From an uncultured Myxococcales bacterium (GTDB taxonomy: Bacteria > Myxococcota > UBA4151), in assembly GCA_964013405.1 (NCBI GenBank), contig CAXGWI010000094.1:1-14314 (forward strand): a stretch of DNA of 14,314 bases, written 5' to 3'. The notes below the pieces were generated by a model. The model ran no database searches. It had not been told where the DNA came from and was given only the letters and a program-made list of their open reading frames with translations. A program made the translations under genes and the position numbers. Each line of letters starts with the position of its first letter. The first letter of the stretch is position 1. This document shows positions 1 through 14,314 of the stretch, piece by piece.

Positions 1-1276
1 ATGGGCTATGTAGGCTTGCCATTGGCCTTAAGTTTCATTCGGGGGGGGCTGCAGCGTCCTTGGCCTAGACATCGACGAAGAGAAGGTGTCGGCCCTGAAC
101 GCCGGTGCCTCGTACCTGGGGCACATCCCAGATGAGCAGATCGCTGCCGCTGTCGCCACCGGCCGTTTCGAAGCCACGTTGGACTTCAGCCGCTGTGCTG
201 AGGTGGACGCGGTGATCATCGCTGTTCCCACGCCGCTGAGCGCCCACCGGGACCCGGACTTGAGCTATGTGGAAGCCACATGCCGAGCCATCGGCCCCCA
301 TTTAAAGGCCGGAACCCTCGTTATCCTTGAGTCGACGACCTATCCTGGCACCTGCCGAGAGGTGATGATTCCTATCCTCGAACAAGAGAGCGAGCACACC
401 GTCGGCGAGGGCATCGAGATCGCTTACTCCCCTGAGCGTGAAGACCCGGGCAATATCGACTTCGAGACCCAGACGATTCCGAAACTGGTGGGGGGGCAGA
501 GCCCAGCCGTGACTGCGCGGGCCGTGACATTGTACAAGAAGGCCCTCGATCTCGTCATTCCCGTGGACAGCATGGAAATCGCCGAGTTGGCCAAGCTGTT
601 CGAGAATATCTTCCGGGCCGTCAACATCGCACTCGTGAACGAAATGAAGGTGCTTTGTGATCGGATGGACGTGGATGTCTGGAAGGTCATCGATGCGGCC
701 GGCACCAAGCCCTTCGGCTTCATGAAGTTTACGCCGGGGCCTGGGATCGGCGGGCATTGTATTCCCGTCGACCCGTTCTATCTCACCTGGAAGGCGAAGG
801 AGTACGGTATCAACACCCGCTTCATCGAGCTGGCAGGCGAGGTGAACAGAGGCATGCCCCAATACGTGATCGACCGTTTGCGAGAGGCCTTGAGTGAGGA
901 CCGAAAGGCGCTGACCGGTGCGAAAGTGCTCGTGCTCGGTGTGGCTTACAAGAAGGGCGTTGAGGACATGCGGGAAAGCCCCTCGCTGGACTTGATTGAG
1001 TTGCTGCTCAATGCCGGTGCTGATGTGCGGTACCACGACCCCTTCGTGCCCTCCCTTCCCCAGATGCGGAAACATGACCTCGCCTTGGGCGGCTCGCGCC
1101 CATTGACCGACGCGCTGCTCGCCGAGTCCGACGCGGTGCTCATCGCAACAGACCATGACGAAGTCGATTACCAGCAGGTGATCGACCAGGCTCGACTCGT
1201 CGTCGATACCCGTAATGCTGTCCGGGCTCAGTTGGGTGCGCAGGTCCAAGGGCGAGCCCGGTTGGTTCATGCCTAA
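1..1276 (+). CDS. wbpA: Nucleotide-sugar dehydrogenase (UDP-N-acetyl-D-glucosamine 6-dehydrogenase, WbpA/WecC/TviB family); probably 5'-partial, with an apparent frameshift at G8 (41-48)
   Basis: Frame 1 from base 1 reads MGYVGLPLALSFIRGG (tail of the Rossmann GxGYVG motif). Frame 2 from about 47 reads GCSVLGLDIDEEKV and continues through the 86..1276 ORF with family motifs AVPTP, ESTTYPG, SPEREDPG, KLFENIFRAVNIALVNE, catalytic GGHCIPVDP and LGVAYKKGVEDMRESP. The segment GGHCIPVDPFYLTWKAKEYG closely resembles Pseudomonas WbpA as I recall it; the exact substrate is inferred. Confidence 0.9.
41..48 (+). repeat. G8 homopolymer at the frame-1 to frame-2 switch of the dehydrogenase gene
   Basis: Bases 41-48 are gggggggg. 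With G7 the sequence reads CGG GGG GGC TGC (R-G-G-C) and joins both halves in one frame. With G8, frame 1 stops at TGA 133-135; frame 2 is closed upstream by TAG 11-13 and TAA 29-31. Confidence 0.85.
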
Positions 1277-2939
1277 ACAGGAGTCATCGCCAGGGGCACC
1301 ACCGTCCACCGGGACGGCGAGTCCACCCCGTGTGGTCATGACGGTCTTCAACACCTTTCAGCACGACACTCGGGTCTACAAGCAGTGCCGGAGTTTGTTG
1401 GAGTGGGGCTGCGAGGTGGATGTGGTCTGCATTCACAAGGGGGACCTTCCGCGGGAAGAGACCCAGGATGGGATCCGGGTCCATCGAGTCTCGCCAAGCC
1501 CATTTGCTTTGGTTCGCCTGTTGCTCTTCCTCGTCTACTGGCCGAGCACCGCGCTGATGCGCCGCTTGCTCAACCGCAAGCCTCCTCAGCCCGCGGCCGT
1601 GGTCGCCGGGCCCGGAAGGCTCCGGCGTATCATCCGGTGGATCTTGTGGCCGATTAGCGCCCCCTATCGGGGGTTTCGCTGGCTGGTATCGAAGCGCCCA
1701 AGACGCTGGCCTTCGTGGACGGCACCGGAAGCCTGGCCCCGTGGGCTTGCCTGGATTGCAGTGATCATTCGTTGGTGCGGCTGGTATCTGCTCTATCGGC
1801 CAACGGTTTTGAGCCTACGTCGTTTTCGACTCGCTCGTCGGGGGTTTCGCCGCTGGAGGGTCCGAAACCGATTGACCATGCGACACGCCCGGAAATTTGG
1901 TCGGCGTCTCATCCTGAAGCTCTTTCATCCGGCCATCATCGTGAACCTGGCCGGATTGGATCTGGCTCGTAAGGCCATTTCGCTGCGCCCGACGTTGATC
2001 CTCTCCCACGACCTCAACACCCTCTTGGCCGGTGTCATCGTGAAGCGAATGTGTGAGGTGCCACTGGTTTATGACAGCCACGAGTTGTACCTTGAGCGCA
2101 ACATCGGCAATCGTAGCCGGAGCATCGACCGGTTCTTCTGGAGTCGGGTGGAGCGTCGCTGCATGAAGCGAGTGGACCTCGCATTCAGCGTCGCCCAGGG
2201 AATTTGTGACTGGTTAGCCGAGCGCTACGACCACCCGGACGTCCGTTTGATCCGCAACGTTCAGCCTTTCGAGCCGCCGTCGACACCCTCTGAGCGGTGG
2301 CAACGAGAGCTGGGGATTCCGGAAGGAACGCCGATCGGGATCTATGCCGGCGCGATCACGATCAACCGTGGCATTGAGCAACTGATCGATTCCGCCGCCC
2401 ATCTGAAACACATGGCCTACGTGATCATGGGCTATGCCTTCCAGGAAGCCTATCTCGAAGGGTTGACCACCCGGGCCCGCGAACTTGGGGTTTTGAACGA
2501 ACGGGTCTTCTTCAAGGATGCGGTGCCCATGGATCAGGTGATCGCCGTCGTTGCCAGTGCCCGAGTGAGCGTCGTTCCGACGCAGAACGTCTGCTTGAGC
2601 TACTTCTTCGAGGCATCAAACAAGATCTTTCATTCGCTGATGGCTGGGGTTCCGGTGGCGATGAGCGATCATGCAGAAAAGCGGATGATCGCGGACAACT
2701 ACAAGGTGGGTGTCCTTTTTGATGAAACGGATCCAGCGGGGATCGCACGTGCTGTCGAAGGCTTTGTCATGGATGAGGATGTCCATGCCAAGGCCGCGGC
2801 AAACTGCTTGGAGGCTGCCAAGGAGCTCAACTGGGAACATGAAGAGTTTCGCTACCGTCAAGCTATGAAGGGCTTGCTGGGGGACGGGGTCGGCCCGGTG
2901 CCTCCTGTGCAATTCTCCACCAAGGAAGCAGCGAACTGA
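1269..2939 (+). CDS. Glycosyltransferase family 4 (GT-B fold), with an Arg/Trp-rich internal insert
   Basis: N-terminal RVVMTV...DTRVYKQCRSLLEWGCEVDVVC, SHDLNTL, PLVYDSHELY, IYAGAITINRGIEQLI and C-terminal SNKIFHSLMAGVPV...NWE are typical GT4 elements. The start is taken as ATG 1269, which overlaps the upstream TAA (1274-1276), rather than 1215. Confidence 0.88.
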   Translation: MPKQESSPGAPPSTGTASPPRVVMTVFNTFQHDTRVYKQCRSLLEWGCEVDVVCIHKGDLPREETQDGIRVHRVSPSPFALVRLLLFLVYWPSTALMRRLLNRKPPQPAAVVAGPGRLRRIIRWILWPISAPYRGFRWLVSKRPRRWPSWTAPEAWPRGLAWIAVIIRWCGWYLLYRPTVLSLRRFRLARRGFRRWRVRNRLTMRHARKFGRRLILKLFHPAIIVNLAGLDLARKAISLRPTLILSHDLNTLLAGVIVKRMCEVPLVYDSHELYLERNIGNRSRSIDRFFWSRVERRCMKRVDLAFSVAQGICDWLAERYDHPDVRLIRNVQPFEPPSTPSERWQRELGIPEGTPIGIYAGAITINRGIEQLIDSAAHLKHMAYVIMGYAFQEAYLEGLTTRARELGVLNERVFFKDAVPMDQVIAVVASARVSVVPTQNVCLSYFFEASNKIFHSLMAGVPVAMSDHAEKRMIADNYKVGVLFDETDPAGIARAVEGFVMDEDVHAKAAANCLEAAKELNWEHEEFRYRQAMKGLLGDGVGPVPPVQFSTKEAAN

Positions 2940-3997
2940 TGCGTTTGACCGGCTACCGTAAAGTCTCGACCTGGATGGCTCGAGACACCCTGCTCCGTTA
3001 TCCCGTCGCCAATATCCTCGGGACCGGGCTGAACTTCGGTGGCATGGCTGTTCAGGTGGCTGCCGTGACCTTAGCTTTGCTCTATGCCCGTCGCCTCGAG
3101 ACCAACCAGCCCGTGCAACTGCTCGGCGAGAGTTACCTGCCCCAATCGTCGACGACACTTCTTTATGCGGTGGGCGCTGGGGCCGGACTGCTCCTTTTGG
3201 TCTCTTCCCTCATGACATGGTGGGGGCAGAAGCTGATCCTCAATCTGCGCCGCCGGTATTATGAGTTCTGTATGGATCGCTTGTTTGGACTGCTGCACGA
3301 GCGGGGAGCGCCGCCGCAGTTGGAAGATCGAGAGCAGCAAGTCCGGGCCTTGTTTATGCTGATTCGGCGGGATGGTCTGTATTGTAGTCGATATTACGGT
3401 GCCCTCATCGGAGCTGTTGTGCCCGGGGTGACGGCATCTGTCGCCTTGGTGACACTCATGGTGACCGATTGGCCCCTGACCATTGCGCTCATCTTGGTCA
3501 TGTTTCTGGCCCTCCCGTTCATCTACCGTGGTAATAAGGTTTCGAGCGCTTTGTCGAACCAAGTGGACCAGCGGGCGCCCAGTTGCTCCGTGGAGTTGAA
3601 AGACCAACTTCGCCAAACCCTCGATGAGGGCGGCGATGAGCGGGAGACGCCCCGGCCAGCCAGTGACGGCTGGATGGATGCATACATGGGCCGGTTAGGC
3701 GCAGCGATTCATTCCGATCTCGTGGTGAACCTCATCATGAGTGTGGCGATCGCTGCCTTGGTGGTCGGTGTGGGTTATCAAACGATCACCAGCCACACCG
3801 GGTGGGGACGCATCGCCATCTACTTGGTGGCATTGCGCTACTTCCTCGTCCACTTGAAGGGCTTCGCTCGCTGCATCACAACCATGAATCAGTTTTACGC
3901 CCAAGCCAGCCGTTACCGGGCCTATGTGGTCGACGGTCTCGTGCCGATAGAGGCGGCGGTATTGGCTGACTTGGACGATGGCAGTGAGGATCTTTAG
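2939..3997 (+). CDS. Integral membrane protein resembling an ABC exporter transmembrane domain (about 6 hydrophobic segments), with no nucleotide-binding domain
   Basis: TGATG stop/start overlap with the GT4 gene. The spacing of hydrophobic helices and the linker LRRRYYEFCMDRLFGLL resemble type-IV ABC (MsbA/PglK-like) TMDs. No Walker A/B or LSGGQ motif in 352 aa. The CDS is solid; the family call is moderate. Confidence 0.6.
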   Translation: MRLTGYRKVSTWMARDTLLRYPVANILGTGLNFGGMAVQVAAVTLALLYARRLETNQPVQLLGESYLPQSSTTLLYAVGAGAGLLLLVSSLMTWWGQKLILNLRRRYYEFCMDRLFGLLHERGAPPQLEDREQQVRALFMLIRRDGLYCSRYYGALIGAVVPGVTASVALVTLMVTDWPLTIALILVMFLALPFIYRGNKVSSALSNQVDQRAPSCSVELKDQLRQTLDEGGDERETPRPASDGWMDAYMGRLGAAIHSDLVVNLIMSVAIAALVVGVGYQTITSHTGWGRIAIYLVALRYFLVHLKGFARCITTMNQFYAQASRYRAYVVDGLVPIEAAVLADLDDGSEDL

Positions 3998-5654
3998 CCC
4001 AGGTACACCTCTTCCCGAAGTCGAGGGGAGCCTCCGATCCGGCAGCGTGGAAGCGGCCGGGCTACGGGCCCGCTGGCTGGGCTTCATCTTCGAACTGGGC
4101 GTGGCGCCGGGCCAAGCCACAGTCACCCGCTACCTGCACGCGCTCGCCACTCAGACCGGCAACTTCGTGGACCGGGTCCAGGCGGCTTTTGGAGGTCCTG
4201 GCCGACGACTGCGTGGTCAGTACCTATTGGTTTTAGAAGACATCGAATCTGGTCATCGCTGCGCGTTTATCGACCACGCGGGCATGTTCAAAGCCTGTGT
4301 GGCCGGCGAGACCCTCAGTGGTGATTATCTATCCCTCGTCGACCATCTGGGACAGGGAGCAAAGGACCTCGATTTGGTTGGGGCTGTGGAGTTCTTGAAC
4401 CTGGGCCATGTCGGCGAGCGACGGACCCTAACCCAGGGCATTACCCATCTCGGCCACGAAGAGCTCCTCTGCTGGACTGATCGCGGATTAGAGCGTCTCG
4501 ACAAGGGCTTGGGGGGGCTGGAAGAGCCCGTTCCGATTGGCCTCAGAGACTACTTCGAGGGGCTTGCCGCCAGCTTGGCCACAGAGACTGTGAGTGTGGA
4601 TTTGACCGGCGGATTCGACTCCCGCTTGGTCGCTGCCCTCTTGCACGATTGTGGTCTCGACTTTGAAGTCAGCCTTTCTGGGCGACCGGAGAATCAAGAT
4701 GTTCATCTGGCTCAGGAGGTTGCCAAAGCGATGGGTAAGCCTCTGGCGGTACACATGCATACGCCCCAGGGTGTTGAGACGGCTCTCACTGGACTGTTTC
4801 ACTATCTCGATGGCCACGGCGACCTCATCCCTTACCACCGAATTCATCAATGGCAGGCGGCCAAACGTGACCGTGGCGTGACCGTGGCTGTCAGTGGGGC
4901 CGGCGGTGAGAATTTTAATGATTACTGGTGGCTGCAGGATTTCCCGCGCTACGGCAGCAAGACAAGCCGGCTCGGCCGGCTCTATGATCTGCGCATGTGT
5001 GCGAGCCCAGTCCCGCAGGGGCACCTCAGTTCAGAAGCCGCCATGGCCAGCCGCCAACTCCGTGCTCGGCGCTTGGATGCCCTCGAGTTCTGCCGGCGAG
5101 AGACCAACACCCAGACTTATGATTGCACCTTCACCCTGCAGCGAATGCCGATTCTGGCGGGGCGAAGCCTGACCAGCACGACCATGAATTGTTTGCCTGT
5201 TACCGCCCCGCTGCTGGACTGGGATTTGGCATCGCTGGCCTATCAGTTGCCGATAAGGCAGCGCTTGGGGCGCCGGTTTCACCGGCAGTGGATCACAAAG
5301 ATTCATCCTGGGATGGCCCGATGCCCAAGCACGAACCGAGTCAGCACAGCTTGGTCTCGGGAGGCTTTGCTCCTCGATCCACCTCGCTATGTGGCCGACC
5401 TCTCCCTGCGCTTGGCCAATAAGTTGAGTACCCGGTTTCTTGGTAAAGCCTTCCTCCATGACAGCCCAGATCATGCCGAGACCCGCAGCCTGATTCGACA
5501 GTCGAAGACGGCAGAAGGACTTGTGACCCGGTGTATCGAAGCTGGAATTTTGGCTGAGACCATGGATGCGCAGCGGCTGCGCCTCGGTGACCTCGGTCGC
5601 GTGCTCTGCATCGGTTTGCTTCTTGAGCACCTCGACCACAGCAGACAAGCCTAG
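3978..5654 (+). CDS. Asparagine-synthetase-like ATP pyrophosphatase (PP-loop) ligase, probable polysaccharide amidation or amino-acylation enzyme
   Basis: PP-loop SVDLTGGFDSRLVAA, VSGAGGE (the SGxGxDE equivalent), APLLDWDL and the linker AVEFLNLGHVGERRTLTQGI are typical of AsnB-like proteins. It overlaps the upstream gene by 20 nt and has no Cys at position 2. Confidence 0.78.
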   Translation: MAVRIFSPGTPLPEVEGSLRSGSVEAAGLRARWLGFIFELGVAPGQATVTRYLHALATQTGNFVDRVQAAFGGPGRRLRGQYLLVLEDIESGHRCAFIDHAGMFKACVAGETLSGDYLSLVDHLGQGAKDLDLVGAVEFLNLGHVGERRTLTQGITHLGHEELLCWTDRGLERLDKGLGGLEEPVPIGLRDYFEGLAASLATETVSVDLTGGFDSRLVAALLHDCGLDFEVSLSGRPENQDVHLAQEVAKAMGKPLAVHMHTPQGVETALTGLFHYLDGHGDLIPYHRIHQWQAAKRDRGVTVAVSGAGGENFNDYWWLQDFPRYGSKTSRLGRLYDLRMCASPVPQGHLSSEAAMASRQLRARRLDALEFCRRETNTQTYDCTFTLQRMPILAGRSLTSTTMNCLPVTAPLLDWDLASLAYQLPIRQRLGRRFHRQWITKIHPGMARCPSTNRVSTAWSREALLLDPPRYVADLSLRLANKLSTRFLGKAFLHDSPDHAETRSLIRQSKTAEGLVTRCIEAGILAETMDAQRLRLGDLGRVLCIGLLLEHLDHSRQA

Positions 5655-7351
5655 GGCGATTGGGCCTCAATCCATTGGGCCACTTGCTCCCGCTCCAGGT
5701 GGACGAGGAGCATGCAGAGGTCACCGGGCTGGGTGCAGTCCATGGCCGCTTCTAAGGCGGCGACCTCATCGCGAACAATCTTGATTTGCGCCGCTGATAT
5801 GCCCCGGCTCAAGAGGCCGGCTTGAATCAAGTGGGGAACCTCTAGGTCGGCCCGCCCTCGTTCATATCCAGTCATCTCTCGAATGATCACCTGGTCCGGT
5901 TGCACGGCGGCGAGGGTTGCCGCCAGGTCGAGGATTTCTTCGTCGAGTCGGTCGCCAGCCTGACCCAAGCTGACACAGAGACGGGAGTTTGGGCGCTGGT
6001 CGAGGAGCGATTGGGCGAGACCTAAGATGGCTTCAAGCCCATGGGGGTTGTGGCCAAAGTCGAGCAACAGGCGACGGCCAGCAACTTCCAGGAGTTGGCA
6101 GCGTCCCGGGTTATCCTGTGGGGCTGCACCGAAGCCGCTCAGGGCCTCAGCCACCTTGTCGAGGGGCAGCCCAAGGGAGCTCGCTGCTGCACTGGCGGCC
6201 AAGGCATTGCTAATGTTGTGTCTGGCTGCGCCACCAAAGGCGCAGGGCATGTCGGCTGCGGCCATCAGGCGGTGTTCGTCGTCGCCGATCCGCTGGACAA
6301 GATGATCGTCGCTCAGGAGCCAAGCCTCGCCACCCCGGCTGCAATGGGTCTGGATCACCGGGTTCGCCTCGTCGAGACCGAAGAGGATGAGTGGGCTGTC
6401 GTACTGGTTTAGGAGGGCGGTAAGCCGGGGATCGTCGGCGTTGATGACTCGATGGCCGGCCTGATCCACGGCGGCACAAATGAGATTCTTCACCTGGGCC
6501 ATGGCCTCGACATCGTGGATGCCGTAGTCGCCCAGGTGATCGGCAGCCACATTGGTCACGACGGCAACATCACAACGCTCCACGGCTAAACCCCGCCGCA
6601 GAAGTCCGCCGCGGGCGGTCTCCAAAACCGCCGCGTCGACTTCGGTATGGCGTAAGGCCAGGCGGGCGGCGCCGGTTCCTGTCCAATCGCCCTCCTCCAC
6701 GACGCGCTCATCGATGCAGACGCCGTCCGTTGACGTCGAACCCACGGTAAAACCCGCTGTCTTCATGATTCTTGTCAGCATGCGAGACGTGGTTGTTTTG
6801 CCGTTGGTTCCCGTGACGAGGGCGACGGGAATGGGCCTGTAGCGCTGCCAGTCGATCGTCGCCGGATCGGGGAGGGAGCGAGCCGGCCAAACTTGACTGT
6901 GGCGACCGTAACCTAGGGAGATCTCGTCATCATCCCAGAGGAAGGGGCAATCCTTGTGGTCGGCTGCCCGCTGCAGGGCGATGACCGCCGGGTTGAGTTC
7001 TTCTTCCAGCGACTGAGTAATGTGTTCGACCGCTGTTTCTAGATCTGGCTCAGGCTGCCCAAGGCGCAGCGCATTTGCCGCCTCGATGGCCCATTCGTTC
7101 ATTTCCGTCGCCGCATACAGTTGGTCGATCGGCGCAACAAAGCCGATGGAGGCCCCCCCTTCAAAGGTCCTTTGGAAGGATTCACAGTGGTCCAGACCGA
7201 AACGGCTGCACATCCGCGCCAGGGCTTGCAACCACAGGTCAAGGCTGGCGGCTGCATCCTCGTCGGCCTCAAAGCAGACGTCTGCGATCGCACTGGGCCC
7301 TGGCCCCTGAAGGTTCGTTCCGGTCAGTCGGCGAGAGTTCTTGATCTCCAT
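5651..7351 (-). CDS. CphA-like Mur-ligase-family protein (degenerate CphA N-domain plus M domain; ATP-grasp domain absent)
   Basis: P-loop VTGTNGKTTT (aa 179-188) and motifs GDWTG, ETARGGLLRRGL, NVAADHLG, INADD, HNISNALAA, PGR, DFGHNP and GDRLDEEI each match a motif in the adjacent CphA. The N-terminal RRLTGTN parallels CphA RVFRGPN. The ATG lies 2 nt after the cphA stop. Confidence 0.88.
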   Translation of the reverse strand: MEIKNSRRLTGTNLQGPGPSAIADVCFEADEDAAASLDLWLQALARMCSRFGLDHCESFQRTFEGGASIGFVAPIDQLYAATEMNEWAIEAANALRLGQPEPDLETAVEHITQSLEEELNPAVIALQRAADHKDCPFLWDDDEISLGYGRHSQVWPARSLPDPATIDWQRYRPIPVALVTGTNGKTTTSRMLTRIMKTAGFTVGSTSTDGVCIDERVVEEGDWTGTGAARLALRHTEVDAAVLETARGGLLRRGLAVERCDVAVVTNVAADHLGDYGIHDVEAMAQVKNLICAAVDQAGHRVINADDPRLTALLNQYDSPLILFGLDEANPVIQTHCSRGGEAWLLSDDHLVQRIGDDEHRLMAAADMPCAFGGAARHNISNALAASAAASSLGLPLDKVAEALSGFGAAPQDNPGRCQLLEVAGRRLLLDFGHNPHGLEAILGLAQSLLDQRPNSRLCVSLGQAGDRLDEEILDLAATLAAVQPDQVIIREMTGYERGRADLEVPHLIQAGLLSRGISAAQIKIVRDEVAALEAAMDCTQPGDLCMLLVHLEREQVAQWIEAQSP

Positions 7352-7353
7352 GC

Positions 7354-10152
7354 CTAGTCGGCTTCCTCTGCCGCCAGGCGGGCACCTCGCTCATCGATGA
7401 CCAGGGCTTCGAAGGCCCGTAAATCCAAGCCTTGAGGTGTTGAGAGCTCGGCCAGTACGGGGCCGATGTCCCCGTCGGCCGTCGAGGGCGCTTCATTGTC
7501 TCGCTCCGCTGGCTGATGGGTAATGATCTGCTTCCAACAGCGGGTGCTGGCATCCCCGAAGATGAGCAGGAGGTCTCCCCGCTTGGCCCGCTCAAGAGCA
7601 CTGTTCACGGCTTCCTCTTCGTCGACGATGACCTCCAGGCGATCGGCCTCGACACCGGCCGCTAACAACTCATCGTAGAGCATCCGTGGGATCTCATCAT
7701 CGCCCCGCCCCCGCCGGGCGTCATCGCGACGAAGGATGATGTGATCGAAGGGGCCAGCAGCGACGTTGCGGGCGATTTCCTGGATGTCTTCGTCCCGTCG
7801 GTCACCGGGCGCAGAGAGGACGCAAAGCCGGCGCCCTTCCACATCCAGCCGGGCGACGAGGTTGACCATCGCAAGCACCGCCGCAGGGTTGTGGCCGTAG
7901 TCCAAGATGACCTTGAAGGGGTGCTCATCGTAGACATTCATTCTTCCAGGCACTTGGAAGAAGGATGCGTCGAAGGTCCGCAGGCCCTGGCGAATGTTAT
8001 CGACCTTGATGTCCATCGCGTAGGCCATCAAGGCGGCAGCCATCGCATTTTGGACATTGTGCAGGGCTTTGCCCTCCATGGTGGCCGGGATCAGGTGGGT
8101 CCACAGCAAGGGCAGATCCAGACCATCATCGTAAAGGGTGATCATCTGGCCCTTGATGCCCTGCTCTAAGACGATGGCGAGCCCACCGGCTTCGATGTGC
8201 TGCAGGACCAACGGGTTGGTGGGATCCATGGTGAAGTAGGCGATGCGGCGGGCCTCGGTATGGGCCGCCATCTTCAAGCACAGGATGTCGTCGGCGTTTA
8301 AGACGGCACAATCCCGGGCCACCTCCACGACGGTTCGCTTCACCTCGGCCAACTGCTCGATGGTATCGATGCCCTTCAAGCCCAGGTGGTCGTTGGCTAC
8401 ATTCAGAACCGCACTCACGTTGCAACTGGAGTAGCCCAGCCCGGAGCGCAGCAGACCGCCTCGGGCTGTCTCTAGGACCGCAGTGTCAACCTTCGGATCC
8501 CGCAGGACCATCTGTGCAGAATGGGGACCCGTCATATCGCCAGCGGCGGTTCGCTGCCCATCGATGTAGACGCCATCGGTGGTGGTGAGCCCGACGGTGG
8601 CCCCAGACATCTTGAAGATATGGGCCAACATGCGGGCGGTGGTCGTCTTGCCGTTGGTACCCGTCAATGCGGCGATCGGGATCCGGGTGGGCGTGCCCGG
8701 AGGAAAGAGCATGTCCATCACGGGGCCGGCCACATCCCGCGGTTTACCCTCCGTCGGTGCCACGTGCATGCGGAAGCCAGGGGCTGCGTTCACTTCGCAA
8801 ATGGCGCCGCCGATCTCCCGGTAGGAGCGCGTGATATCCGGCGTAATGAAGTCGACGCCGGCCACGTCCAGGCCGATGGCTCGGGCAGCCCGCTGGGCCA
8901 TCTCTCGATTGTCGGGATGGACCACATCGGTCAGATCGATGGCGGTCCCTCCCGTAGACAGGTTACCCGTGGAGCGAAGGTAGAAGATTTCGCCGTCCTC
9001 GAGCACGGTCTCTGCCGTATAGCCCGCACCTTCGAGGAGGCGGTTCGCCTGATAATCTAACTCGATTCGAGTGAGCACCTTCTCATGGCCGACGCCACGG
9101 CGGGGATCCTCGTTCACCTTGTCGACGAGCTCAGAGATCGTGCTCGTTCCATCGCCGACCACATGGCCGGGAACCCGTTTGGAGACCGCAACCAATTCCC
9201 CATCGACCACCAACATACGATGATCAAAGCCCTCGATCATCTGTTCTACGAGGACGCTGCGGCCGTGCTCTTTGGCTTTGCCCACCGCGGCTTCTACTTC
9301 CTCCGGGCTCGTCAGGTTCAATGAGACGCCGCGCCCGTGATTCGCGTTGTAGGGCTTCACCACCACGGGATAACGCAGTGACTGCGCCGCGCGGATGGCC
9401 CGGCGGACTGAGCGCACGAGCTTCTGCCGAGGCACCGGTAGCCCGATGGCGGTCAACAGGTCGTTGGTCTCTTCTTTATCCGAGGCGATCTCTACCGCGA
9501 TGTGGCGGGTTTCCGAGGTCACCGTCGCTTGAATTCGCTTTTGAAACTTCCCGTGGCCGAACTGGACGAGGGAGTAGTCGTTGAGCCGCAGCCAAGGGAT
9601 GTCCCGTTCCTCGGCGGCCCGGATGAGCGAGGCGGTGGAGGGTCCGAACTGTCGTCGCTGAGCGAAGGTGATCAGGTCGTCCAATTCCTCTTCGTAGTTG
9701 AAGTCTGAGCGGATCTTTGCGCCCCCGCGGAGGGCTTCAGGGATCGCCTGATGGATCATCTCTACCGCAAGGTCGGCGGCCGCTAAGCCCACTCGTTCCT
9801 CTTCATAGGAGTAAACGACGTGATACTGTCCATCGAGCCCGGTTCCACGGGTTTTTCCGAAGGTGACCCCGGCACCGGTGAGTCCCTGCAGCTCGATGGC
9901 CATATGTTCTAGAATGTGACCCATCCAGGTCCCGCCATCCTCTTGCAGACGGCGGACGAAACCACCGGGTTCGCCATAGGAACAGCCATGCTCATTCAGG
10001 CTCGGCATCCAGGCGAGCAATTGGGCATTGAAATTGGGGATGGTGGCGCTGGGGTAATCCTCGAGCGGCCCCAAATCGAGGGTGAGGCGGATGACCCGAA
10101 AACGGGCGTAGTGATTGGGGCCTCGAAAGACTCGGCGTTCAACGATGTCCAT
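7354..10152 (-). CDS. cphA: Cyanophycin synthetase CphA1 (N, ATP-grasp G and Mur-ligase M domains)
   Basis: 932 aa with N-domain FRGPN and C57...H79-I-L-E82-H83; G domain GPSTASL, VVVKPYNANHGRGV, DHRMLVV, NEDPRRG.GHEKVLT, NLSTGG, EVNAAPGFRMH; M domain TGTNGKTTT, ETARGG, DHLG, DYGHNP. A GGAG RBS lies just upstream of the ATG, and the gene is adjacent to cphB. Confidence 0.97.
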   Translation of the reverse strand: MDIVERRVFRGPNHYARFRVIRLTLDLGPLEDYPSATIPNFNAQLLAWMPSLNEHGCSYGEPGGFVRRLQEDGGTWMGHILEHMAIELQGLTGAGVTFGKTRGTGLDGQYHVVYSYEEERVGLAAADLAVEMIHQAIPEALRGGAKIRSDFNYEEELDDLITFAQRRQFGPSTASLIRAAEERDIPWLRLNDYSLVQFGHGKFQKRIQATVTSETRHIAVEIASDKEETNDLLTAIGLPVPRQKLVRSVRRAIRAAQSLRYPVVVKPYNANHGRGVSLNLTSPEEVEAAVGKAKEHGRSVLVEQMIEGFDHRMLVVDGELVAVSKRVPGHVVGDGTSTISELVDKVNEDPRRGVGHEKVLTRIELDYQANRLLEGAGYTAETVLEDGEIFYLRSTGNLSTGGTAIDLTDVVHPDNREMAQRAARAIGLDVAGVDFITPDITRSYREIGGAICEVNAAPGFRMHVAPTEGKPRDVAGPVMDMLFPPGTPTRIPIAALTGTNGKTTTARMLAHIFKMSGATVGLTTTDGVYIDGQRTAAGDMTGPHSAQMVLRDPKVDTAVLETARGGLLRSGLGYSSCNVSAVLNVANDHLGLKGIDTIEQLAEVKRTVVEVARDCAVLNADDILCLKMAAHTEARRIAYFTMDPTNPLVLQHIEAGGLAIVLEQGIKGQMITLYDDGLDLPLLWTHLIPATMEGKALHNVQNAMAAALMAYAMDIKVDNIRQGLRTFDASFFQVPGRMNVYDEHPFKVILDYGHNPAAVLAMVNLVARLDVEGRRLCVLSAPGDRRDEDIQEIARNVAAGPFDHIILRRDDARRGRGDDEIPRMLYDELLAAGVEADRLEVIVDEEEAVNSALERAKRGDLLLIFGDASTRCWKQIITHQPAERDNEAPSTADGDIGPVLAELSTPQGLDLRAFEALVIDERGARLAAEEAD

Positions 10153-10192: not shown

Positions 10193-11014
10193 TTAGGGAG
10201 GGGTGGCGCAGCGGGTGTTTAAGTCAAAGCGCGACCCGTGGGGGAGGATGTGCACACGCACATCGGTCATACACAGGGGCTCCCCTTCGCGGGTCTCTGC
10301 AATGGAGGAGTGACTGAGTTGGGAGACGTCGACGACAGTAATCGCCCCCGAGCCGACCACTCGAACCACATTGTCTGGAGAGATGAATGCGGCCGTATCT
10401 TCATCCAAGCCCAGGCCCACAGCAAAGGGGTTGTAGCTGAGCGCACTGAGGAGTCGGCCTAAACGATCTCGTTCCCGAAAGTGCTGATCGATGACGAAGC
10501 GATTGGTCAGCCCGAGTCCTGGGGCCAAGGAGACCATGCCGGCCAGGGGAGTTCCCCCGGTCCCACCGTATGCGATCATGTGTTCGGGGAGGATGGCAGC
10601 CCCGGCCGAAGTGCCGCCCACCGGGATGCCCTTGGCGTTGAGTCGGCGCACCAAGGTCGCCACGGAGGTGCCACCTAGGGTCGCGGAGAGCCGCAGTTGA
10701 TTGCCGCCGGTGAAGAAGACACCGCTGGCGTCGTTCAGGGCCTCGAGCCAGTCGTCCCGGTCCGTATCGACCCGTTCCCGGTAAGGGAGCGAAACCGCCG
10801 ACTGGGCCCCCAGTTCCTGGAACAAATCTTCGTATTGTTTGCCCGTTTCATCCAGGGATGAGGCCGTGGGAATGATGACGATGCGTGATTCCTCTTCGCC
10901 GCTCAGGCGGACGAAACGCTGGAGGATCCTCGGGTGACCGACCTTTTCCTCGGCGCCACCGACGGGAACAATCCAGCCCCGGGTTTCATCGGTTTGACTG
11001 CGGGATGGGCTCAT
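10193..11014 (-). CDS. cphB: Cyanophycinase (peptidase S51), intracellular CphB type
   Basis: Motifs VGGAEEK, IIPTAS, FFTGGNQLRL, nucleophile elbow GTSAGA, DQHFRERDRLGRL and GLDEDT (Ser-His-Glu triad). No signal peptide is evident. ATGA overlap with the iadA stop. Confidence 0.96.
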   Translation of the reverse strand: MSPSRSQTDETRGWIVPVGGAEEKVGHPRILQRFVRLSGEEESRIVIIPTASSLDETGKQYEDLFQELGAQSAVSLPYRERVDTDRDDWLEALNDASGVFFTGGNQLRLSATLGGTSVATLVRRLNAKGIPVGGTSAGAAILPEHMIAYGGTGGTPLAGMVSLAPGLGLTNRFVIDQHFRERDRLGRLLSALSYNPFAVGLGLDEDTAAFISPDNVVRVVGSGAITVVDVSQLSHSSIAETREGEPLCMTDVRVHILPHGSRFDLNTRCATPP

Positions 11015-12177
11015 TGTTGCTCTCTTTCAAAGGGTCCAAGTCGAGTGGTTTTGCCACCACGGACCATCCATTGCCCCCGAGCCATGACGGCTTCGAGGGC
11101 ATTGTGTTCGTCGAGTATGATCAAGTCTGCTTCCAAGCCTTGGGCGATCCGCCCTTTCTGGGCGAGTCCAGCCACCCGGGCCGGGTTGCGGGTAAAGATG
11201 GGGAGGACCTGCGCGAGGTCGAAGCCCTCTTTGAGTAAGTCCTGCAGGCTTTCCAAGAGCGTGATGGGTTGGCCCACGTCCATGTGGATCAACTTGCCGT
11301 CTGCATCGAAGACGGGGAGACAACCCGCACCATCGCTGCTGCAGGTGAGTTGCTCTACGGGTAAATCATCGCCAAGCCAGCGGCTGATGGCTTCGGCCGC
11401 ACTGTAGCTGTTCTCGTCGGCCTCAAATGCAGTGACGTCCACCGTGATGCCCCGTTCAGACAAGGCCTGGGCCTCGGCGAAGAGCGCCCGCTGCCGATTG
11501 ACATGGGTGGGATGGAAGACCCGTGCTGGGAGTTCCGATTGGTCGAGGGCCCGGCGCACCAGGTCCAGGCCGCGCACCCCATCGCCCAAATGGAGGTGAG
11601 TATGCCCCGATTTCCCGGCGATCATCCCGGCGACATAGGCGTCCGAGACGACCCGCAGCAATTCATCAAGGGTGGGCTGAGACGAGCGATGATCACTGAG
11701 GGCCAATTCGCCCACGCCGATGATGGGATCGACAAAGACGATATCGTCACGGACCGTCCCGGTCAGGGTCACCGGAGGCACTTGATAGCTGCCCGTATAG
11801 CACCAGGCGGAGAGTCCCAGATCCCGAAGGCCCAGGGTTGTGGCGACCAGATCGCGCATCGTACGGGTACTGCCATCGGTTCCAAGAACCCCGATGCAGG
11901 TGGTGACGCCGGCCCGTGTCAGCCCACTCAGGGCGAGGGGGGGAACTCGGGTTGCGGGGCCATCTTCACCGCCCCCGCCGGACAGGTGCACATGGCAATC
12001 GACCAGCCCGGGCAATAGGCGCTTGCCGGCAAGGTCGACCTCCTCCTGGGGCAGCGAAGCATCCAGCCCCGGCAGTTCCGGAGCCATGGCAACGATTTGG
12101 TCGCCAGCAATCCACAGGTCCCGCCGCCCCAAGCGCTCGGGGGCATAGACCTCCGCTTGTCGTAGGACTGTAAACAC
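11011..12177 (-). CDS. iadA: Isoaspartyl dipeptidase / beta-aspartyl peptidase (amidohydrolase superfamily)
   Basis: Motifs PGLVDCHVHLSGGGGEDG, GVTTCIGVLGTDG, TGSYQVP, GVGELALSDHRSSQP, HLGDG, PTHVNR and SSDGAG. The start is reassigned to GTG 12177 (388 aa, normal IadA length), with AGGGAG about 9 nt upstream. The 39-aa extension in the ORF track looks non-coding. Confidence 0.95.
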   Translation of the reverse strand: MFTVLRQAEVYAPERLGRRDLWIAGDQIVAMAPELPGLDASLPQEEVDLAGKRLLPGLVDCHVHLSGGGGEDGPATRVPPLALSGLTRAGVTTCIGVLGTDGSTRTMRDLVATTLGLRDLGLSAWCYTGSYQVPPVTLTGTVRDDIVFVDPIIGVGELALSDHRSSQPTLDELLRVVSDAYVAGMIAGKSGHTHLHLGDGVRGLDLVRRALDQSELPARVFHPTHVNRQRALFAEAQALSERGITVDVTAFEADENSYSAAEAISRWLGDDLPVEQLTCSSDGAGCLPVFDADGKLIHMDVGQPITLLESLQDLLKEGFDLAQVLPIFTRNPARVAGLAQKGRIAQGLEADLIILDEHNALEAVMARGQWMVRGGKTTRLGPFEREQQ

Positions 12178-12185
12178 CGTGAATC

Positions 12186-12193
12186 GCTCCCTG
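12186..12193 (-). promoter_or_regulatory. Probable Shine-Dalgarno site (AGGGAG) for iadA
   Basis: The minus strand reads gcaaaagc-AGGGAG-cgattcacg-GTG(12177). Confidence 0.6.
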
Positions 12194-12331
12194 CTTTTGC
12201 CCTGATCGCCTCGACGTCGAGCATTTTCGCGACGACGTTGAGACCCAGGGCGGATGCGCCCCTCGCGCGGGTGGAGGCGGCGCGCAAGCGCCATTTCGTG
12301 GCGGGCTTGAGATGATGTGGCGGCCCCTTGC

Positions 12332-13186
12332 CTACGGCTTGGGCAAGTCGACCAATTGGCCCCGTTGGTAGTCTTCGATGGCCGTGATCAATTCGTGACG
12401 GCTATTCATCACGAATGGACCATAGCGCACCATGGGCTCGTGTAGCGGTTTCGCGGCGAGTATGAGGCACTCGCAGCCCTCAGGGCCGGCGACGAGATGA
12501 ACGGCCTGCAGGGCCTTCAAGCTACCGAAAATCCCTTCGTCGAGTTGAACACCATCGACCGTGAGTCCCCCCTCAAAAGGATAGAGATGGGCTTCTTGGT
12601 CCGCGGGCAGGGGGAGGTGCAGGGCCCTGTTGGGGCTGAGGCTCAAATGGGCATAGGTGATGGGAGTTGTGGTTTCCACGGGGGAGCGGAGGCCCAAAAG
12701 CTCGCCGCCGATGAGCCGCAAGGTATAACCATCCCCCTCATCTGTCGGAATGTCCTCGGGGGCCATCCCCTGATAGCGGGCCGCTGCCATCTTCTGGGCC
12801 GCGGGCAGGTTCACCCACAGTTGGAAGCCGTGCATGGTCCCACCCGTGCGAAGGAAGTCCGCGCTGGGCAGCTCGGAATGAATAACGCCTCGGCCGGCGG
12901 TCATCCATTGGACGCCTCCTGGAACCAGATGGGCACATGTCCCTGTGGAGTCCTCATGGACCATGGCGCCCTCAAGGAGGTAAGTGACTGTTTCAAAGCC
13001 TCGATGGGGGTGTTCTGGGGCGCCAATGGCCTCCCCTGGTCCCCAGGTCTTCGGCCCCATTTCGTCTAAGAGTAGGAAGGGGTCGATCTGGTCGCAGCCA
13101 GGCACGGGAAAGGGGCGTCGAACGGGAAACCCGCCCCCCTCAAGGGTCCGGTGGCTGGGCAGGCGCCGACGAAAGGGGCTCTCCAC
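12332..13186 (-). CDS. Pirin family protein (bicupin, Fe-binding)
   Basis: Motifs EGGGFPVRR, DPFLLLDEM, HPHRGFETVTY, HEDS, QWMTAGRGVIHSE, FQLWVNLP and C-terminal EPMVRYGPFVMN. The GTG start lies 3 nt after the upstream TGA. Confidence 0.95.
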   Translation of the reverse strand: MESPFRRRLPSHRTLEGGGFPVRRPFPVPGCDQIDPFLLLDEMGPKTWGPGEAIGAPEHPHRGFETVTYLLEGAMVHEDSTGTCAHLVPGGVQWMTAGRGVIHSELPSADFLRTGGTMHGFQLWVNLPAAQKMAAARYQGMAPEDIPTDEGDGYTLRLIGGELLGLRSPVETTTPITYAHLSLSPNRALHLPLPADQEAHLYPFEGGLTVDGVQLDEGIFGSLKALQAVHLVAGPEGCECLILAAKPLHEPMVRYGPFVMNSRHELITAIEDYQRGQLVDLPKP

Positions 13187-13189
13187 CCC

Positions 13190-14314
13190 TCAACGAATCC
13201 AGAGATTGGACAGGCGCCAGTAAGAACCGCTGCCACCACAGACATTGCCGAAGTCTGACCAGCTGTACCAACTGGCAGTGTTTGTGACCCCGGGGAGGTT
13301 ATGGGTGCGATCATGCTGCCGGTTGTCGCCGCAGCCGTGACAGCGGTAAGCGCCGGACCGGTTATCGCTGTCGGGCCAATCCCAGCAGGGCGAGCCGGTC
13401 CCGCCGCTTGAGTACACATTGCCGATGAACCGGACCCGGGTGAAGTTCATGCCGGCGTTGAGGCGAATACTGACACCACCTGCCCGATCCCCGCCCTCAA
13501 GGTTTGCCCGTGTGGCATCGCAGGTAAAGGAGCCGCCACTGTTGCTGAGCCAACTGCCGCAGAAGTTGTGGGGGTTGTTGGGACCGATGATTTCCGTCCA
13601 GCCACCGCCGTCAAAATCCATGTCGCAGCGGACCTGGCGAGGGGTTCCATCAGGGTTGATCCAGTAGGTGCCACTGCCAACGCCCGGGCGACCATCCCTC
13701 AAGGCCAGACACGTGGTCGCAGCGGAGGCCTCGGTTTCGCCCAAGCCCAGTTCGCAAGCGTTGGAGCAGACGTCGTCGTCATCCTCGTTGCCGTCGTCAC
13801 AGGCCTCAACATCACGGCGGACAAAGCCATCGCCGCAGCGGGCAGTGGCGCAGTCCGAGACACAGGCGTCACCGTCATCATCATTGCCATCATCGCAGTC
13901 TTCTACACCGGCCCGGACCACGGCATCACCGCAGACCGCTGCTTGGCAGTTGTTCAGACAAGCGTCGTCGTCGGCCTCATTGCCATCATCGCAGGCTTCT
14001 GCGCCGGGCTCGCCGGCTTCAAGGTCGACCCGGGCGATGCCATCACCGCAGGCGGCAGGCTCGCAGGCATTCGTACAGGCATCATCCGCATCTTCATTAC
14101 CATCATCACAAAGCTCTTCTCCCTCGTGAAGTTGCCCGTCGCCGCATCGGGCCCGTTCGCAGTTGGTGAGGCAGGCATCATTTTGAAGGTCATTGCCATC
14201 GTCACACTGTTCTGCGCCGATCGCTCCCGGCTCCAGATCGTTGCGGATGACGCCATCGCCGCAGCGAGCGGGGGCGCAGGCGTTGGTGCATGCGTCGCGA
14301 TCCACTCGGTTGCC
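13190..14314 (-). CDS. 5'-partial, probably extracellular protein: myxobacterial Cys-rich repeats (DUF4215-like), a fibrinogen-like YCDxxxxGGGW module and a Cys/Trp-rich C-terminal region
   Basis: The frame is open to the window edge (GNRVDRDACTNAC...). It contains repeated CGDG...E.CDDGN....DAC...C units, then TTCLALRDGRPGVGSGTYWINPDG...VRCDMDFDGGGWTEI, and ends LWIR-stop. Confidence 0.85.
   Translation of the reverse strand, partial: GNRVDRDACTNACAPARCGDGVIRNDLEPGAIGAEQCDDGNDLQNDACLTNCERARCGDGQLHEGEELCDDGNEDADDACTNACEPAACGDGIARVDLEAGEPGAEACDDGNEADDDACLNNCQAAVCGDAVVRAGVEDCDDGNDDDGDACVSDCATARCGDGFVRRDVEACDDGNEDDDDVCSNACELGLGETEASAATTCLALRDGRPGVGSGTYWINPDGTPRQVRCDMDFDGGGWTEIIGPNNPHNFCGSWLSNSGGSFTCDATRANLEGGDRAGGVSIRLNAGMNFTRVRFIGNVYSSGGTGSPCWDWPDSDNRSGAYRCHGCGDNRQHDRTHNLPGVTNTASWYSWSDFGNVCGGSGSYWRLSNLWIR
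13754..14314 (-). repeat. Tandem coding repeats: five complete and one partial Cys-rich CGDG/CDDGN units
   Basis: Units start at 14263 and have lengths 39, 32, 39 and 32 aa, followed by a final short-type unit. Each has four conserved Cys and an acidic DDGNxxxxD segment. Confidence 0.9.

Follow-up and report, generated by a model that had tools for sequence, protein, structure and literature searches.

Why does a bacterium with a complete cyanophycin synthetase (CphA) carry, directly behind its cphA gene, a second CphA-like gene without the ATP-grasp G domain? The question is raised by the stretch of DNA analyzed here, positions 1 to 14,314 of contig CAXGWI010000094.1 (14,314 nucleotides, the window) from an uncultured Myxococcales bacterium (assembly GCA_964013405.1). 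The gene lies on the minus strand at 5651-7351 as an uninterrupted open reading frame (ORF; 7351-5651, no internal stops) for a protein of 566 amino acids (aa), the fourth gene of an iadA-cphB-cphA-paralogue block, and was identified through ORF, Pfam, NCBIfam and BLAST analyses, a structural model and a fold search. We suggest, with a probability of roughly 0.45, that the paralogue is an ATP-dependent ligase that would act in trans on cyanophycin made by the adjacent CphA1 and attach a residue other than arginine.

The paralogue consists of an N domain, a G-domain stub, a short linker, and the Mcore and Mlid parts of the Mur-ligase module, all encoded on the minus strand. The N-like domain (approximately residues 1-119; 6995-7351) has the CphA N fold according to hhalign and structural alignment, with approximate boundaries. 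It is followed by the start of the G domain (residues 120-153) and the linker (154-172), together at 6836-6994 and delimited by BLASTP, hhalign and homologue spacing, then by Mcore (~173-412; 6116-6835), placed by alignment with SuCphA1 and by conservation, and finally by Mlid (~413-566; 5654-6115), placed by conservation and loop alignment. Pfam recognizes only Mur_ligase_M (179-390) and Mur_ligase_C (416-548) in this protein, whereas the neighboring CphA additionally matches RimK/ATP-grasp models; an ATP-grasp match is absent from all 59 of 59 aligned family members. In BLASTP against the neighboring CphA, residues 174-549 align with 491-865 at 39% identity (E 2e-62), and a weak second block joins residues 111-153 to CphA 161-205 (E 0.002). 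The offset between the two proteins is 52 at G149/G201 and 317 at T180/T497, so that a net ~265 residues are gone. Using profiles of 153 paralogue homologues and 37 close relatives of the window CphA, hhalign aligned paralogue residues 1-153 with CphA 1-205 (probability 83%, E 9e-6) and found nothing against the CphA G body at 216-488 (probability 1%). The stub is a helix and hairpin ending in LGYG, after which a family-specific W-P..LP..W linker replaces the ~265 ATP-grasp residues; the spacing from G147 to T180 is 31-57 aa (median 33) in the 153 homologues.

Structure prediction agrees with this domain assignment. The AlphaFold2 model of the paralogue (predicted local distance difference test score 95.7, predicted template modeling score 0.94) superposes on TeCphA1 (7wae_C) with Z 41.9 and a root-mean-square deviation of 2.8 Å over 407 residues, model residues 1-409 covering chain residues 1-723. 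The best Foldseek matches are CphA1 structures (E 2e-39); in the superposition, MurC and MurE reach Z values of up to 27. A preliminary description of this DNA, made by eye, had proposed a CphA paralogue with an intact Mur-ligase module, no ATP-grasp domain and these same offsets; Pfam, BLASTP, hhalign and the superposition all support it.

The paralogue shares with MurE-type ligases (PDB 1E8C, 4C12) the Mur middle and C-terminal folds, the P-loop and the GDR motif, but differs from them in its weak match to the murE model (107 bits), in a structural Z of ~25 vs. 41, in the absence of a Mur N-terminal (UDP-MurNAc-binding) domain among its Pfam matches, and in its cph context. It also has neither DNPR nor GKGxE, both of which are present in the genome's own MurE. 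Among the NCBIfam models, TIGR02068 (CphA1) scored 401.9 bits, matching the M region only and below the cut-off of 850, all mur models fell far under their cut-offs, and no CapB model was among the 25 matches listed out of 26. The N domain does not have the Cx19HxxEH zinc-peptidase motif and instead has the family-conserved residues R7, R8, G11, D76 and E86; HxxEH occurs in 0/153 paralogue homologues vs. 37/37 close relatives of the partner CphA. We considered primer cutting by the N domain of the paralogue, and it is excluded by this count. As a side observation, DUF4938 matched 3/59 aligned members (best E 3e-7), and a DUF4938 cluster resembles the N region structurally (template modeling score 0.79); DUF4938 is probably a relative of the CphA N domain.

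The paralogue belongs to a single clade of ~560-600-aa proteins found in several phyla. The 120 best homologues listed are 492-593 aa long and nearly all span the whole query, and most of the 150 profile matches listed are 530-620 aa, with one 972-aa representative holding the complete domain set. Residues 1-170 were also used to look for longer, fused forms, and none was present among 2038 candidates, which is weak evidence. Full-length matches occur in 22/301 genomes of the organism's own phylum, in 86/201 genomes of the gammaproteobacterial order of genome G301 (whose locus L008 is named Xanthomonadales), in 8/400 scored genomes of the class of G301, and in 16/251 genomes of the phylum of G303 (named Planctomycetota). 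A full-length gene is also present on four plasmid or chromid records (Ruegeria twice, Shinella, and a strain filed as Roseateles), and both of the records inspected, one being that of Ruegeria AD91A, have the order cphB-cphA-paralogue. The organism's own phylum appears to be Myxococcota, as loci with that name code for proteins identical to those of other genomes in the phylum.

Linkage to cphA was scored at 92 loci (all 17 loci of one homologue set, the 22 from the own phylum, the best 30 of the 86 from the G301 order, 7 from the class and 16 from the phylum of G303), of which 6 duplicates were dropped; the counts are descriptive, since related genomes are not independent. The paralogue gene lies directly downstream of cphA at 79 of the 86 unique loci; five others are at contig edges, and two are non-adjacent, one of them with merely 444 bp of contig upstream. 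At many loci, it also lies with cphB and iadA/iaaA. Of six apparent exceptions in the G301 order, two (G362, G323) are contig edges, with no cphA match in the G362 assembly, and four (G315, G335, G395, G409) are truly unlinked and still hold cphB and cphA, whole or as a contig-end fragment. Two members from cphA-less assemblies (G917, G943) have decayed at the P-loop Asn and at the ETARGG, DH and GDR motifs. Such decayed catalytic motifs in cphA-less assemblies, within ORFs that are intact, are seen at L172:4180-5928 and L173:8068-9597. In both cases a hydrolase-like gene of the same kind, unrelated to the family, lies upstream; a new non-catalytic role is possible for these members.

In four same-family genomes, the paralogue has a nonsynonymous rate (dN) of 0.29-0.38 and a synonymous rate (dS) of 1.8-3.1 or saturated, giving dN/dS of ~0.1-0.18. 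The CphA M region of the same genomes has dN of 0.08-0.14, so the paralogue evolves ~2.5-4 times faster. It is under purifying selection and is not a remnant. An M-domain tree was built from 31 family members, 39 CphAs and 3 host Mur ligases, with one partial sequence excluded and cyanobacterial and clostridial CphAs not knowingly included. In this tree, the family is monophyletic (Shimodaira-Hasegawa approximate likelihood ratio test, SH-aLRT, 95 with and 100 without outgroup) and placed beside all sampled CphAs (85), and the partner CphAs form their own clade (SH-aLRT 99). A topology that forces family and partners together was not rejected (approximately unbiased test, p-AU 0.063). The family is old, and its descent from the partner CphA clade is compatible with the tree test. 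The preliminary description had asked whether the gene might be a recent deletion remnant, be unlinked to cph genes or group with peptidoglycan ligases. The 153 homologues also have no G domain, which speaks against a recent remnant; the linkage to cph genes is real; and NCBIfam, the SuCphA1 alignment, structure and the M-domain tree all place the protein with CphA.

The catalytic residues of the M domain are retained. In CphA1, K499, T500, T522, E558, R731 and H748 were shown to matter (PMC9427784), and D585/H586 are important (PMC9262961); in the SuCphA1 alignment they correspond to K185, T186, T208, E244, R417, H434 and D271/H272. Across the 153 diverse homologues, K185, E244, D271, H272, K288, R417 and H434 are 99-100% conserved, and T186 and T208 are Thr in 85% and Ser in 15%. 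Mcore contains the P-loop TGTNGKT at 180-186, and R417, H434, GDR (466-468) and RGR (498-500) are conserved in Mlid. The conservation of this catalytic set, together with the tie to cphA, suggests an amide ligase that uses ATP and takes cyanophycin or fragments of it as substrate. In the partner CphAs, the G and M residues are invariant and the M site is intact (37/37 close relatives). Since the partner M site is intact, complementation of CphA is not needed, and the idea that the paralogue complements a dead M site was rejected. A link to loss of the partner's primer-making site was rejected as well, with that site present in partner-type CphAs both with and without the paralogue gene.

The positions in the lid that are predicted to contact the incoming amino acid are, by contrast, not retained, and the early claim that all M-domain motifs remain holds only for the residues of ATP binding, metal binding and catalysis. 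In MurE, the side chain of the amino acid is bound by the Asp of the DNPx loop and by a Glu that follows the last strand, and Lys addition almost disappeared upon E460A exchange (PMC3829189). The host MurE aligns these side-chain loops to CphA 809-814 and 867 and to family positions 492-498 and 551-553; the Mlid loops that differ from CphA are 492-497 and 551-554. We compared the pocket columns of 59 family members with those of 39 CphAs. The CphAs have D810 in 34/39 and D/E867 in 37/39, whereas at the 867 column (551) the family has His in 38/59, Leu in 17/59 and never an acid. At the D810 loop, the family has a one-residue insertion, mostly Pro or Ala at 494, and Y496 in 50/59. The second Arg of the CphA GDRR motif (R786 equivalent; 37/39 CphAs) is lost in the family. 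A separate alignment of 145 family and 38 CphA sequences, made after removal of 5 CphAs whose P-loop did not fit the search pattern, showed the same differences. On the acceptor side, the family shares R247 and R252 with CphA, and W/Y223 and R253 are family-specific. As judged from these alignments, the lid amino-acid pocket is remodeled relative to CphA throughout the family. Members at L174:9192-10874 and L175:7414-9108 are long-branched, come from 2-Mb genomes, and have KRG instead of RRG and EL/EV, not His, after the last strand; they possibly have a different specificity.

Because the pocket is remodeled, addition of Arg seems less likely than that of another residue, and the earlier suggestion of a side-chain ligase adding Arg or another residue is supported in its ligase core and weakened in its Arg option. 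In the mechanism that we envisage, the non-catalytic N domain would hold cyanophycin or a fragment of it, and Mcore with ATP would phosphorylate a free Asp carboxylate, in the simplest case that of the undecorated terminal Asp side chain, as CphA1 does. The remodeled lid would then pick a neutral or acidic non-Arg amino acid, whose amine would form the amide. The outcome would be beta-Asp-X units that alter polymer composition or solubility or cap the chains, and these units might later be cleaved by a promiscuous IadA of the same gene row.

Several observations weigh against ligation of a non-Arg residue. Nearby acids are retained (E/D492 in 51/59, E/D553 in 32/59) and could, judging by their positions, take over cation binding; the lid net charge is CphA-like (-4.5 vs. 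-4.6); and R253 is also found in 5/39 CphAs. Among diverse members, 18-29% have Leu in place of H551, and the family may thus include several specificities. The CphA1 structures described in PMC9427784 did not reveal where Arg binds, and the pocket assignment comes from analogy with MurE and from a sequence alignment that is loose in the pocket loops. Finally, genomes G556 and G754 have the same type of cphA without the paralogue gene, and polymer synthesis therefore does not require it.

More speculative is a third catalytic class, in which a ligase working on its own, its pocket switched, would add an acidic or neutral residue, making either the (beta-Asp-Arg)-Asp primer or branches of Asp, Glu or other residues; we put this forward only tentatively, as a doubtful possibility. 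Next after our main reading, and clearly less probable than it, is an accessory Arg/Lys side-chain ligase that would perform the CphA1 M chemistry in trans, for faster synthesis or for filling undecorated Asp residues. The CphA1 M domain is the top family and fold match (TIGR02068 402 bits vs. murE 107), the acids E492/E553 are still close to the pocket, and CphA1 sites are able to act across molecules (PMC9262961). However, the equivalents of D810, D867 and R786 are lost family-wide, the M site of the partner is intact, and independent G-less CphAs (L181, L182) keep a CphA-type pocket, which argues that loss of G alone does not remodel the lid.

It is also unlikely, and more so than the Arg/Lys ligase, that the paralogue is a primer or recycling enzyme acting on short products, which would extend CphB-released beta-Asp-Arg by one Asp, yielding (beta-Asp-Arg)-Asp, or couple Asp with an amino acid into beta-Asp-X. 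(beta-Asp-Arg)-Asp is the minimal CphA1 primer, and beta-Asp-Arg is no primer (PMC9262961); the loss of acids and gain of His551, Arg554 and Tyr496 would suit an acidic incoming residue; and cphB and iadA/iaaA are neighbors at many loci (see also PMC3646047 Fig. S2B). Yet the partner CphAs already own a primer-making CxnHxxEH site (37/37), and the acceptor-side R247 and R252 are identical to those of CphA. A non-catalytic or regulatory subunit, binding ATP and polymer or docking on CphA via Mcore and setting chain length or granule association, is improbable. The CphA1 Mcore does touch Gcore modules of other protomers (PMC9427784), and conserved surface residues of the N domain are particular to the family, but a scaffold would not need the full catalytic set, including D271/H272 and K288 at 99-100% conservation, and the protein has no Gcore, through which CphA1 mainly dimerizes. 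Very improbable, and largely refuted, is the view that a duplicated cphA left this gene behind as a decaying deletion remnant, or that it is a peptidoglycan Mur ligase assigned wrongly, a view for which the faster evolution and the database labels "Mur ligase" and "UDP-N-acetylmuramyl tripeptide synthase" might speak, but against which stand the uniform length, the single clade across several phyla, the purifying selection, the just 39% identity to the neighboring CphA, the missing Mur N-terminal domain match, and the genome's separate MurC-, Mpl-, MurE- (DNPR, GKGAE) and FolC-like genes.

Among known systems, the paralogue resembles CphA1 (TIGR02068; PDB 7LG5/7LGQ/7TXV, 7WAE, 7LGM, 7LGN) in its N fold, its complete Mcore and Mlid, and its ATP, metal and catalytic residues, and differs in having no ATP-grasp G domain, no Cx19HxxEH site (the primer-making site, present in 83% of CphA1s; PMC9262961) and a remodeled lid pocket. 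It resembles CphA2 (PDB 7TA5, 8FXH) in being CphA1-derived, with one active site left and a non-catalytic N domain (PMC10273328). Unlike the paralogue, CphA2 keeps an active G domain and a truncated M domain without P-loop and lid (PMC9427784, PMC10273328), so that "mirror image of CphA2", as the protein had been called, is fair for the architecture. The Ralstonia-type tandem full-length cphA pairs (Groups IV/V) likewise have a second cphA-like gene in the operon with functions divided, but their genes are usually 860-910 aa with G, form a separate clade, and have a degenerate lid in the first gene.

Other CphA variants were met alongside the family. In the tandem full-length cphA pairs of L048-L054, the first gene combines the more CphA-like N domain with degenerate lid motifs. 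At L053 (661 aa) and L054 (488 aa), much or even all of its G domain and lid is gone as well; this suggests that the first gene supplies N function only. A separate G-less CphA of 622 aa in Legionella adelaidensis NZ_LR134428.1 (L182:5746-7614) keeps the N-domain CxnHxxEH and a CphA-type lid (GDRRE), and is lined up with cphB and an isoaspartyl peptidase gene, with no full cphA on NZ_LR134428.1; G was lost here independently and with the same boundary, possibly in an enzyme that serves to use the polymer and not to make it. On Deinococcus plasmids, L181:5329-7503 (724 aa, G deleted) and L183:4699-7215 (838 aa, G eroded) are stand-alone CphAs with a CphA-type M domain and no annotated cph neighbors.

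The family itself has very probably been listed before. "Cyanophycin ligase-like" CphA-prime proteins are known as Group VII, a group reportedly due to Füser & Steinbüchel 2007. In a later survey, Group VII comprises 28 proteins located beside Group VI cphA (PMC3646047 Fig. S2B, S3, Table S2), most of its accessions being consecutive to Group VI cphA (Colwellia, Francisella, Congregibacter, NOR5-3, Plesiocystis), and Octadecabacter arcticus has the order cphB-cphA-cphA'-iaaA (PMC3646047). Acinetobacter ADP1 is Group VI in Table S2 of that survey (PMC3646047), and the best PDB matches of the window CphA are the T. morbirosei and A. baylyi enzymes; the paralogue, like Group VII, thus adjoins a Group VI-type cphA, with an Acinetobacter enzyme among the closest solved relatives of its partner. 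Likewise, Ruegeria AD91A, a Roseobacteraceae relative of Octadecabacter arcticus, has cphB-cphA-paralogue. None of the 28 Group VII accessions was among 120 matches listed in a separate search or in the 10 clusters inspected, and the assignment of the paralogue family to Group VII cphA-prime, although very probable, follows from gene order, partner type and taxa. Its novelty is accordingly lower than first implied (PMC3646047).

The Group VII passages available from PMC3646047 give no domain analysis and no function. A long-branched "MurE" basal to CphA in Lupo et al. (10.1101/2022.11.30.518518) may be a family member, and a Lysobacter genome paper describes, in its accessible text, only cphA-cphB (PMC4742617). 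The paralogue is not described in the accessible portions of PMC10206079, PMC10687191, PMC10273328, PMC11362209, PMC8560796, PMC7564069 and PMC2824747. Our literature search, outside which lay most subscription papers including the 2007 survey, found no functional study of the family. It is a real, conserved and uncharacterized cyanophycin-synthetase variant that has probably been named in print, to which we add the remodeled pocket, the decay of catalytic motifs in cphA-less assemblies, and the connection with Group VII.

Elsewhere in the window, the complete CphA1 is encoded at 7354-10152 (minus strand; 932 aa; TIGR02068 1152 bits, cut-off 850), with N-domain C57/H79/E82/H83 and intact G and M sites; cphB (cyanophycinase) lies at 10193-11014 (minus; TIGR02069 253 bits, cut-off 126.6) and iadA (isoaspartyl dipeptidase) at 11011-12294 (minus; TIGR01975 398 bits, cut-off 331). 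The TIGR01975 match starts only at residue 41, and the true start of iadA is probably near 12180. The iadA stop overlaps the cphB start, and gaps of 40 and 2 nucleotides separate cphB from cphA and cphA from the paralogue, a spacing that appears operon-like. Each gene is single copy in the genome. The paralogue had been called the fourth gene of a cyanophycin operon; it is the fourth cph gene, with a pirin gene (12332-13186, minus) co-oriented directly upstream of iadA. The pirin gene also occurs in the same-genus genome G020 (L178) and was not found at the other loci checked. Farther upstream, a cysteine-rich DUF4215-repeat protein with a weak fibrinogen-C match in Pfam (13190-14314, minus) continues beyond the window end. 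Convergent to the cph genes is a polysaccharide-type cluster identified by Pfam (86-5654, plus strand), comprising a nucleotide-sugar dehydrogenase, a GT4 glycosyltransferase, a 352-aa membrane protein with no Pfam match, and an asparagine-synthase-like amidotransferase, whose stop overlaps the stop codon of the paralogue. A scan of the window for promoters and terminators was uninformative: no promoter-like site was predicted, and the 3 terminator-like sites, all on the plus strand, were outnumbered by those in shuffled sequences.

Cyanophycin metabolism has so far been described with CphA1, CphA2, cyanophycinases and dipeptidases, and the paralogue would be a fifth enzyme type, itself conserved. 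Databases routinely give it the wrong label, either peptidoglycan "Mur ligase" or "cyanophycin synthetase"; "UDP-N-acetylmuramyl tripeptide synthase" is also among its database names. Cultured, non-pathogenic hosts such as Ruegeria sp. AD91A and Shinella zoogloeoides carry the gene, which makes the question directly testable. Side-chain composition determines cyanophycin solubility (PMC8560796), and a ligase with another specificity would therefore be a tool for tailored polyamides. If a trans-acting ligase for non-Arg residues is the correct reading, it would be an unrecognized step in the making or remodeling of the polymer in 86/201 genomes of one gammaproteobacterial order and in several other phyla. 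If instead the enzyme belongs to a third class that makes primer, the beta-Asp-Arg released by CphB would be recycled to primer and the loop closed; if that class makes branches, many Xanthomonadales, myxobacteria, planctomycetes and roseobacters would natively make a chemically different "cyanophycin."

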